A stretch of 64,000 nt of DNA from Planctomycetota bacterium (GTDB taxonomy: Bacteria; Planctomycetota; UBA1135; GCA-002748355). Each line of letters begins with the position of its first letter. Position 1 is the stretch's first letter. The stretch covers positions 1,796 to 65,795 of the forward strand of contig DROQ01000132.1 of assembly GCA_011321845.1 (NCBI GenBank), given 5' to 3'. Made by a program: the position numbers and the translations under genes. This document shows positions 63,544 through 64,000 of the stretch, one piece after another. Under the pieces are notes generated by a model. The model was not told the DNA's origin, made no database searches, and saw only the letters and a program-made list of their open reading frames with translations.

Positions 63544-63586
63544 ATTCGACAAGAACAAGTTCGACAAGAACAAGTTCGACAAGAAC
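63542..63586. repeat. 15-bp tandem repeat x3 (AAGTTCGACAAGAAC)
   Basis: Units 63542-63556, 63557-63571 and 63572-63586. Starts within the stop codon of the BCCP gene. Confidence 0.85.
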
Positions 63587-63595
63587 TAGAAAAGT

Positions 63596-63627
63596 CCCGC
63601 AGGGAGGGCTCCCCGCAGGGAGGGCTC
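63596..63627. repeat. 16-bp tandem repeat x2 (CCCGCAGGGAGGGCTC) plus a partial third
   Basis: Exact copies at 63596-63611 and 63612-63627. Confidence 0.8.
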
Positions 63628-63649: not shown

Positions 63650-63690
63650 AAAAAAAAACGCCCCCAGCCGGATGAGCGGCTTGGGGCGTT
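63650..63690 (-). terminator. intrinsic terminator of the small basic protein gene
   Basis: Minus strand: AACGCCCCAAGCCG-CTCATC-CGGCTGGGGGCGTT (13 bp, one mismatch) followed by T9. Confidence 0.7.
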
Positions 63691-63715
63691 CCTTGACTGA
63701 AAACCGTGGCGATCT

Positions 63716-63958
63716 CTACAGATCCTGGGGACGCAGGGTCGCGCGCTTGTTCGCAGCGGCGCGAGCCTCGGCGTTGGCGAGAAGATCACGAACCTTGGCC
63801 TCCAAGGCGCCATAGAAATCCGAGGAAACTTTCATATCGACGGCTCTCTTGGTCCTGCTCTTGGAGATAATCATCTCGGCGGGAACGGCTTTCTTGCTGC
63901 CGCGCTTGGCGGTTTTCTTCTTCTTTGCGGTCTTTTTGGCTTTCTTTTTTGCTGCCAT
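63716..63958 (-). CDS. small DNA-binding-type protein: Lys-rich N-terminal tail plus histone-fold-like (DUF1931/HMf-like) core
   Basis: MAAKKKAKKTAKKKKTAKRGSKKA + MIISKSRTKRAVDMKVSSDFYGALEAKVRDLLANAEARAAANKRATLRPQDL. It has its own terminator and an AAGGA SD-like sequence. Confidence 0.6.
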   Translation of the reverse strand: MAAKKKAKKTAKKKKTAKRGSKKAVPAEMIISKSRTKRAVDMKVSSDFYGALEAKVRDLLANAEARAAANKRATLRPQDL

Positions 63959-64000
63959 GATCTTTGTCCTTTTGTTTGAATCGAACGTGTTTGGATTGAA

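Follow-up and report, generated by a model that had tools for sequence, protein, structure and literature searches.

A probable face-to-face histone with a lysine-rich N-terminal tail encoded in a Planctomycetota genome

Introduction

Bacterial histones have been recognised as major chromatin proteins only in 2023–2025. Here we analyse a small basic protein of 80 residues, encoded near the right end of a 64,000-nucleotide stretch of DNA from an uncultured, hydrothermal-vent Planctomycetota bacterium (contig DROQ01000132.1 of assembly GCA_011321845.1, positions 1,796 to 65,795), hereafter the window. Three described histones are the closest points of comparison. HLp of Leptospira perolatii (PDB 9QT0–9QT2; Hu et al. 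2025, PMC12701072) is a bacterial singlet histone with a truncated α3 helix. It forms a tetramer that wraps ~60 bp of DNA, and it reorganises the E. coli nucleoid. HTkC (TK1040) of the archaeon Thermococcus kodakarensis (PDB 9F2C) is a tail-less face-to-face (FtF) histone that coexists with hypernucleosome-forming histones; like HLp, it binds DNA non-specifically and wraps ~60 bp per tetramer. HBb (Bd0055) of Bdellovibrio bacteriovorus (PDB 8FVX, 9EZZ, 9F0E) is an abundant nucleoid protein with the α3-truncated fold and the RxTxxxxD motif, but it is dimeric and has neither the Arg/Asn tetramerisation pair nor a long basic tail.

Schwab et al. (2024, PMC11390915) define the α3-truncated histones, in which α3 has only 3–4 residues and α2 is shorter than that of nucleosomal histones, and, among them, the FtF class. 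The strongest positions of the FtF hidden Markov model (HMM) are R48, N52, R54, T56, and D61. R48 and N52 make the contacts between dimers, and both are missing from "bacterial dimer" histones such as HBb. The equivalent residues of HLp are R49, N53, and R55, complemented by a clamp between R55 and D62 (PMC12701072). In HTkC, R45 forms a salt bridge with the opposing dimer's C-terminal carboxylate; substitution R45A abolishes the tetramer, and an extension of the C-terminus is expected to destroy it likewise (bioRxiv 10.64898/2025.12.06.692711). Schwab et al. also report that FtF histones occur in Planctomycetota (PMC11390915, including Supplementary Fig. 13) and that bacterial FtF histones often carry tails, which are mostly positively charged. 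Both the histone family and its basic tails are therefore known at the family level, and the gene described here is not itself a discovery. The original prediction, which was made from the DNA alone and proposed a histone fold joined to an H1-like tail as an unusual nucleoid component, overstated its novelty in this respect.

Results

Predicted fold of the core

The product of the histone gene is MAAKKKAKKTAKKKKTAKRGSKKAVPAEMIISKSRTKRAVDMKVSSDFYGALEAKVRDLLANAEARAAANKRATLRPQDL. Its isoelectric point is 10.8, and the charge of the core is ~+3.8. In the AlphaFold2 monomer model, built from a 51-sequence alignment (A1), residues 31–80 have pLDDT values (predicted local distance difference test) of 91–95. 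DSSP assigns to the model a short α1, a long α2 of 24 residues, and an α3 consisting of a single turn (residues 77–79). The model thus has an α3 helix where none had been predicted; the helix is cut to one turn, as in the published α3-truncated family.

We compare the model with the PDB by using Foldseek. The best matches are HTkC (9F2C; template modelling (TM) score 0.79–0.81, root-mean-square deviation (rmsd) 1.4–1.6 Å, 40% identity) and HLp (9QT0/9QT1; TM score 0.79–0.84, rmsd 1.3–1.9 Å, 30% identity). HBb comes next (TM score 0.72–0.77, rmsd 1.6–2.3 Å, 21–23% identity), followed by the histone folds of eukaryotic H2B and H3, NF-Y, and TAF proteins. The top 50 matches listed are all histones or histone-fold proteins (HTkC, HLp, HBb, H2B, H3, NF-Y, and TAF4/12). 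Sequence profiles give the same two proteins. The A1 family profile finds 9F2C (E = 1.6e-9) and 9QT0 (E = 4.5e-6) among PDB sequences and no other significant match, and the single sequence alone matches 9F2C at 2.7e-4. The profile matches and the superposition of the model on known structures at 1.3–1.6 Å confirm the proposal that residues 28–80 form a histone fold, with the predicted order α1, L1, long α2, L2, and one-turn α3.

The next PDB matches of the family profile are all eukaryotic H2B (E = 0.2–0.5), consistently ahead of H3, H4, and H2A. The alignments run from the Lys-rich N-terminal tail through α1 and α2, pairing ...NKRSTI with ...NKRATL. We reject a specific relationship with H2B, as these matches, which include the tail, are not significant and are partly compositional.

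Searches of curated domain libraries, which had been suggested as a check, turn out to be a weak route. DUF1931 (PF09123) scores 17.7 bits (E = 0.0042), below its gathering cut-off of 21.8 bits, covers residues 47–80 with 34 of 138 model positions, and is found at E < 0.01 in only six of the 51 relatives. CBFD_NFYB_HMF matches neither the window protein at E ≤ 10 nor any of the 51 relatives at E ≤ 0.01. Other Pfam and NCBIfam matches of the protein and its relatives (ATR HEAT, FlgH, Cse1, Secretin_N_2, HC2, and Rv3852) are noise driven by composition. All DUF1931 matches of the protein and its relatives stay below the cut-off, and the libraries have no model for this class. The structural check, prediction followed by Foldseek, supports the histone fold. 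DUF1931 proteins, which are pseudodimeric doublets such as Aquifex Aq_328, belong to the same superfamily and share a weak similarity over α2 and L2 (residues 47–80), but the window protein is a singlet and falls below the curated cut-off.

The core carries the FtF signature

Residues R66, N70, R72, T74, and D79 of the window protein have exactly the spacing of positions 48, 52, 54, 56, and 61 of the FtF HMM, as well as that of R49, N53, R55, and D62 of HLp. All five are invariant in A1. The RxTxxxxD motif, which contains the L2 threonine and the Arg–Asp clamp, is present as R72-A-T74-L-R-P-Q-D79. The chain ends in ...RPQDL, three residues beyond P77 and one residue past the clamp aspartate, with a stop codon directly after L80, so that the C-terminal carboxylate is free and α3 is limited to one turn. 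For the ends, starts, and tails of the family we use a set of 120 homologues (see below), and for the invariance of columns we use A1. R-x3-N-x-R-x-T-x4-D-x-COOH forms the C-terminal end in 119 of the 120 homologues, and 108 of them end in PQDL. At the other end of the core, the α1 motif I-S-K-S-R-T-K (I31-S32-K33-x-R35-x-K37) is invariant or nearly so in A1. The motifs given in the earlier proposal (ISK..K in α1, a long α2, and R-x-T-x4-D) are real and conserved.

The DNA-contacting positions can also be compared with those of HLp. In HLp, the DNA phosphates are contacted by A13/S14/K15, K17, K21, T27/G29, and T56/T57 (PMC12701072). In the profile alignment, these residues correspond to K33/S34/R35, K37, D41 (consensus K), V44/S46, and A73/T74. 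The S-K/R and Lys contacts in α1 and the Thr in L2 are thus shared with HLp, R49/N53/R55 correspond to R66/N70/R72, the clamp R55–D62 corresponds to R72–D79, and the predicted core superposes on HLp at 1.3 Å. The differences from HLp are an overall identity of ~30% and the N-terminal extension, which in HLp comprises ~10 residues and is non-basic (…NAEKDT…), compared with 27 residues and ~+12.5 here. HTkC is the best match in both sequence and structure. Its toroid-forming R45 corresponds to R66, the partner being the opposing C-terminal carboxylate, and α3 is truncated in both proteins. HTkC differs in being archaeal and tail-less and in having His in place of the clamp Asp.

The same α3-truncated fold is shared by the bacterial-dimer histones, and the protein might instead be a histone of that kind, like HBb, which as a dimer would bend DNA or coat straight DNA without forming a wrapping tetramer. 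HBb is a good Foldseek match, Planctomycetota are also among the phyla with bacterial-dimer histones (Schwab et al. 2024, PMC11390915), and S32-K33 matches the S-K pair that is conserved in bacterial singlet histones (Hocher et al. 2023). However, the bacterial-dimer class, which clusters with HBb, is defined by the absence of R48 and N52, and the window protein has the equivalent R66 and N70, neither of which varies in the family. In addition, HTkC and HLp are nearer in sequence and in structure than HBb, which the family profile does not recover from PDB sequences at E ≤ 1. We consider the dimer alternative unlikely. From its sequence and predicted structure, the protein belongs in the FtF class of α3-truncated histones, which has no Pfam model, and not with DUF1931 or the HBb type. 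Most probably, it is a nucleoid-associated histone of this class, as are HTkC and HLp.

The N-terminal tail is part of the protein

The core is preceded by a Lys/Ala-rich tail. As originally counted, residues 1–24 contain 13 basic residues (12 Lys and one Arg); Lys makes up 50% of these residues and Ala 25%. In the model, residues 1–20 have pLDDT below 50 and are predicted to be disordered. The start of the tail needs checking, because the longer database variant of HLp is a mis-called start (Hu et al. 2025, PMC12701072) and the window gene has an in-frame ATG at codon 29, immediately ahead of the core. If Met29 were the true start, the tail would be an annotation artefact and the product a tail-less histone of 52 residues, and tail-less relatives of 52–56 residues do exist.

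Several observations argue against a start at Met29. The homologues begin with MA(A/K)KK.. in 119 of 120 cases, whereas position 29 is Leu rather than Met in 101. Their tails range from 10 to 60 residues (median 24.5) with a median Lys plus Arg content of 43%, and in 119 of 120 there is exactly one acidic residue, the Asp or Glu at the junction with the core. In 19 pairs of related loci, the pooled ratio of nonsynonymous to synonymous changes (pN/pS) is 0.32 in the tail and 0.13 in the core. In the same pairs, all 34 gapped codons fall in the tail and none in the core, and the gaps always comprise whole codons. A Shine–Dalgarno-like AAGGA precedes codon 1 at 8 nt, but no such motif precedes codon 29. 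Similar motifs lie ahead of the MA.KK start in many relatives, including the GTG-started, short-tailed versions of Methylomirabilota. Finally, the A/K-rich stretch has a GC content of 52% in a 60% GC genome, unlike non-coding sequence. A mis-called start is therefore extremely improbable. The tail is, as judged from sequence comparison and the model, translated, disordered, and under purifying selection, conserved in kind but free in length.

Pooled over the family, the tails consist of 34% K, 24% A, 10% R, 7% T, 6% G, and 5% P, values that are slightly contaminated by four mis-called starts. The long tails of relatives are made of repeats of the AKKA, TKKA, and PKKA type, and the DNA of the window tail contains a 12-nt near-repeat. 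These repeats suggest that tail length changes through slippage.

The tail had been likened to eukaryotic H1 and chlamydial Hc1. This description holds for the existence of a disordered, translated, and selected basic segment, but the likeness is compositional (K/A-rich), not one of homology. The window protein matches none of the Hc1, Hc2, and Linker_histone models at E ≤ 10, and the HC2 model is matched by only one of the 51 relatives (4.4e-4), through the low-complexity tail. The H1 C-terminal domain and Hc1/Hc2 have a similar Lys/Ala-rich composition, with neutralisation of DNA charge as the likely role, but here the segment lies at the N-terminus, and the domain that it extends is a histone fold, not a winged helix or HU fold. 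The C-terminal PAKKA repeats of mycobacterial HupB are another Lys/Ala-rich, H1-like segment.

Homologues and distribution

A search of 5.8 billion proteins gives 608 homologues at E ≤ 1e-3. The best 120 of them, used above, all have 62–129 residues and come from metagenome-assembled genomes (MAGs) of Planctomycetota; where their source gives a name, it is "histone H3/H4" (JGI), "DUF1931 domain-containing", or hypothetical. With one genome counted per species, relatives are found in 472 species genomes, mostly Planctomycetota MAGs, the others including bins of Methylomirabilota (NC10), Eisenbacteria, Latescibacterota, Krumholzibacteriia, and Acidobacteriota. Six independent contigs from metagenomes or MAGs encode exactly this protein, among them a 212-kb hydrothermal-vent metagenome contig and a Planctomycetota MAG assembly. 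The gene is thus real and widespread, far beyond chance, and sequence comparison indicates that the planctomycetal branch of FtF histones is uniformly tailed.

One host of a relative is cultured and has a complete genome, Saltatorellus ferox Poly30, which is available as an axenic culture (bioRxiv 10.1101/817700). Its orthologue is matched at L034:6001-6162, corresponding to NZ_CP036434.1 ~2,453,785-2,453,946; the full ORF encodes 93 residues, with a basic tail of 41 residues and the full FtF signature. In the literature searched, nothing connects Saltatorellus to histones, and the culturable hosts that Hu et al. (2025, PMC12701072) name for bacterial FtF histones are all Leptospira species.

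The versions in Methylomirabilota (NC10) bins (loci L015, L030, L049, L064, L065, L079, and L084) start with GTG behind a strong AAAGGAGGG Shine–Dalgarno sequence. Their tails have only 8–9 residues (M-AKKGKPAE), and their cores are ~65% identical to the planctomycetal ones. The similarity of the cores together with the short tail suggests either that the gene has moved between phyla or that the short tail is ancestral.

More distant relatives come from 1.84 billion cluster representatives, among which phmmer, run without filters on the 54-residue core, finds 92 clusters at E ≤ 1e-3. In almost all of these, the core forms the very C-terminal end of the chain and is preceded by an N-terminal extension of 0 to ~85 residues. 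Five distant proteins (P0125, P0148, P0176, P0200, and P0157) are tandem doublets with two α3-truncated histone folds per chain, each copy ending in ...R.T..P.D(L/I/V). The internal copy offers no free carboxylate to the conserved Arg; thus, the doublets may assemble differently. P0139 (160 residues, tailed) continues for ~80 residues beyond ...RPFDL in an acidic, partly helical-looking C-terminal extension. From its sequence, this extension should block the FtF contact between Arg and carboxylate; it could be a genuine variant or the result of read-through or an assembly error. P0158 (533 residues), a "6-repeat" match in the same search, is a false positive, being a TPR-like repeat protein. 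Within the 64-kb window, which says nothing on the whole genome, we find no second histone and no HU homologue, the HU query being E. coli HupA.

Transcription unit

The histone gene has signals of its own at both ends (Table 1). The AAGGA motif ahead of the start codon is kept between the related loci L001 and L007, the latter an 89%-identity relative. The claim of a strong terminator holds as well. The hairpin begins 28 nt 3′ of the stop codon and is followed by nine T residues; in RNA folding, the 86-nt terminator region has a free energy of -33.7 kcal/mol (z = -3.45 against shuffles). A mismatch inside the stem caused a simple promoter and terminator scan to miss this terminator. Locus L003 has an identical hairpin, and L007 has a different GC-rich hairpin 3′ of its histone gene. 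With a divergent gene on its upstream side and a convergent operon downstream, the histone gene is monocistronic. Taken together, the sequence features describe a stand-alone transcription unit with its own Shine–Dalgarno motif and terminator.

Table 1 Features of the histone locus in window coordinates
Feature	Coordinates	Strand	Basis
Complete CDS of the tailed histone, 80 codons and stop	63716..63958	-	ORF list, sequence, homologues
Shine–Dalgarno-like AAGGA, 8 nt 5′ of ATG	63967..63971	-	Sequence
Predicted disordered Lys/Ala-rich tail, residues 1–27, 13 K/R, no acidic residue, ~+12.5	63878..63958	-	Model pLDDT, charge
Predicted helix α1, residues 33–39 (K-S-R-T-K-R-A)	63842..63862	-	DSSP on model
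Predicted helix α2, residues 46–69; R66 at its C-terminal end, N70 just past	63752..63823	-	Model
Predicted L2 and one-turn α3, residues 72–80 (R72-A-T74-L-R-P-Q-D79-L80-COOH)	63719..63745	-	Model; RxTxxxxD, R–D clamp, free C-terminus
Intrinsic terminator, GC-rich stem-loop (core stem 63659–63688), then T9 (63650–63658)	63650..63694	-	RNA fold
CDS, coding sequence; ORF, open reading frame.

The simple promoter scan finds no σ70-like promoter, either in the window or in the longer upstream sequence that L001 provides. When the 5′ region of the histone gene, which lies mostly outside the window, is compared between L001 (5130-5348) and L007 (2220-2473), two near-identical blocks are separated by diverged sequence. 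The first block is T-rich (...GGTTTTTGCTGTTGCTTGCATTCG..TTTTCCGTATTTACCAAGCCTC) and may be the promoter, though no σ70 consensus is found. The second block (AAGGAAACACCTTTCCTTTTCCCCCAGTTTCA) forms a small hairpin ~50 nt ahead of the histone start codon. From their conservation, the two blocks together could represent a promoter and a conserved element of the 5′ untranslated region.

Between the histone gene and the convergent carboxylase operon, the intergenic DNA contains two perfect short tandem repeats, both of which are absent from L007. The first (63545–63586) has a 15-nt unit, TTCGACAAGAACAAG, in 2.8 copies and begins at the stop codon of the plus-strand gene. The second (63596–63627) has a 16-nt unit, CCCGCAGGGAGGGCTC, in two copies and forms a second terminator-like hairpin on the minus strand. 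In L003, the intergenic region downstream has a different length owing to a scaffold gap of Ns, not to a repeat expansion. An Rfam scan of the whole window gives no match.

Gene neighbourhood

To compare gene neighbourhoods, the ORFs of 79 related loci were clustered. The most conserved neighbour is a ~1200-residue protein, encoded divergently next to the histone gene in 58 of the 79 loci and located just past the right end of the window (L001:1532-5137, minus strand). This protein begins with a transmembrane helix, and its only match, to DUF748 (AsmA/TamB-like), is weak. Leptospira hlp lies in an smc–map neighbourhood (PMC12701072), unlike the histone gene here, and we rejected the idea that the large neighbour is an SMC protein on account of its transmembrane start and of DUF748 as its only, weak match. 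On the downstream side, most loci have tsaB-like, glmM, cdaA, and folP genes, with alr near in some, and ruvX is also among the housekeeping neighbours. In the lineage of the window, this block is replaced by a convergent acyl-CoA carboxylase operon encoding a biotin-carboxyl carrier, a biotin carboxylase, an enoyl-CoA hydratase, and a carboxyltransferase. As the neighbours are housekeeping genes, we read the adjacency as lineage synteny and not as a functional module, and this probably applies to the divergent ~1200-residue protein too.

The neighbourhood bears on a further alternative, namely that the histone fold serves another job, as a specific regulator, as an RNA- or ribosome-associated basic protein, or as a partner of the neighbouring membrane protein. 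Schwab et al. (PMC11390915) caution that prokaryotic "histones" need not all be global organisers. The frequent pairing with the membrane protein would fit a partnership, and Lys-rich disordered tails are typical of ribosomal proteins too. However, the gene is in no operon with a ribosomal or regulatory gene, and its surroundings are ordinary synteny (ruvX, alr, tsaB, glmM, cdaA, folP) of which the downstream block differs in the lineage of the window. Moreover, the conserved residues are the non-specific phosphate-contact and tetramerisation residues of HLp and HTkC, and no sequence-specific recognition element is seen. We regard such a role as very unlikely and retain the assignment as a nucleoid-associated FtF histone.

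Discussion

The known structures of HLp and HTkC suggest how an FtF histone of this kind would work. Two chains would form a handshake dimer, and two such dimers, meeting face to face, would make a closed toroidal tetramer. Across the interface, each dimer would be joined to the other by a salt bridge from R66 to the free C-terminal carboxylate of L80 and by a hydrogen bond from N70 to R72. As this Arg–carboxylate interface needs a free C-terminus, the chain would have to end directly behind PQDL. The ring would carry ~60 bp of non-specifically wrapped DNA, contacted by K33, S34, R35, and K37 at the start of α1, by the L1 serines S45 and S46, and by T74 in L2, with R72 and D79 acting as a clamp that shapes L2. 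By analogy, the four tails of a tetramer, with a charge of ~+50, would leave the ring beside the DNA-binding ends of α1. They would most likely raise the affinity for DNA, neutralise flanking or neighbouring DNA, and favour compaction or bridging, in the manner of the tails of eukaryotic core histones, the C-terminal domain of H1, and the Lys/Ala-rich extensions that other nucleoid proteins of bacteria carry.

Some points weigh against this assignment. The Foldseek E-values are modest (4e-3) at a probability of 1.00, because the domain has only ~55 residues. Several positions differ from those of HLp, with S52 replaced by A69, T61 by Q78, F63 by L80, and K21 by D41, the last being Lys in the family consensus. 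The literature searched contains no experiment on any tailed FtF histone. The +12 tail could alter the stoichiometry or the binding mode of the FtF assembly, the extension of the characterised bacterial FtF histone, HLp, being short and non-basic.

What is gained is a precise assignment to the FtF class and the demonstration that the tail is a genuine part of the protein. To the published description of the family, the analysis adds a uniformly tailed planctomycetal branch, purifying selection combined with free tail length, and a cultured host, S. ferox Poly30. In this large, mostly planctomycetal branch, the proteins as a rule have a strongly basic, disordered tail, whereas HLp, the one characterised bacterial FtF histone, is essentially without a basic tail. 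A bolder idea, drawn by analogy and in our view doubtful, is that the planctomycetal FtF histones may be bacterial tailed histones, each forming, as a closed tetramer, a ~60-bp "mini-nucleosome". Its four Lys-rich tails, of 10–60 residues and lengthened or shortened through short repeats, would behave like eukaryotic histone tails or the H1 C-terminal domain, would reach linker or neighbouring DNA for higher-order compaction, and would possibly be tuned by lysine acetylation. If this were true, tail-based chromatin regulation would have arisen independently, or anciently, outside the Asgard–eukaryote line.

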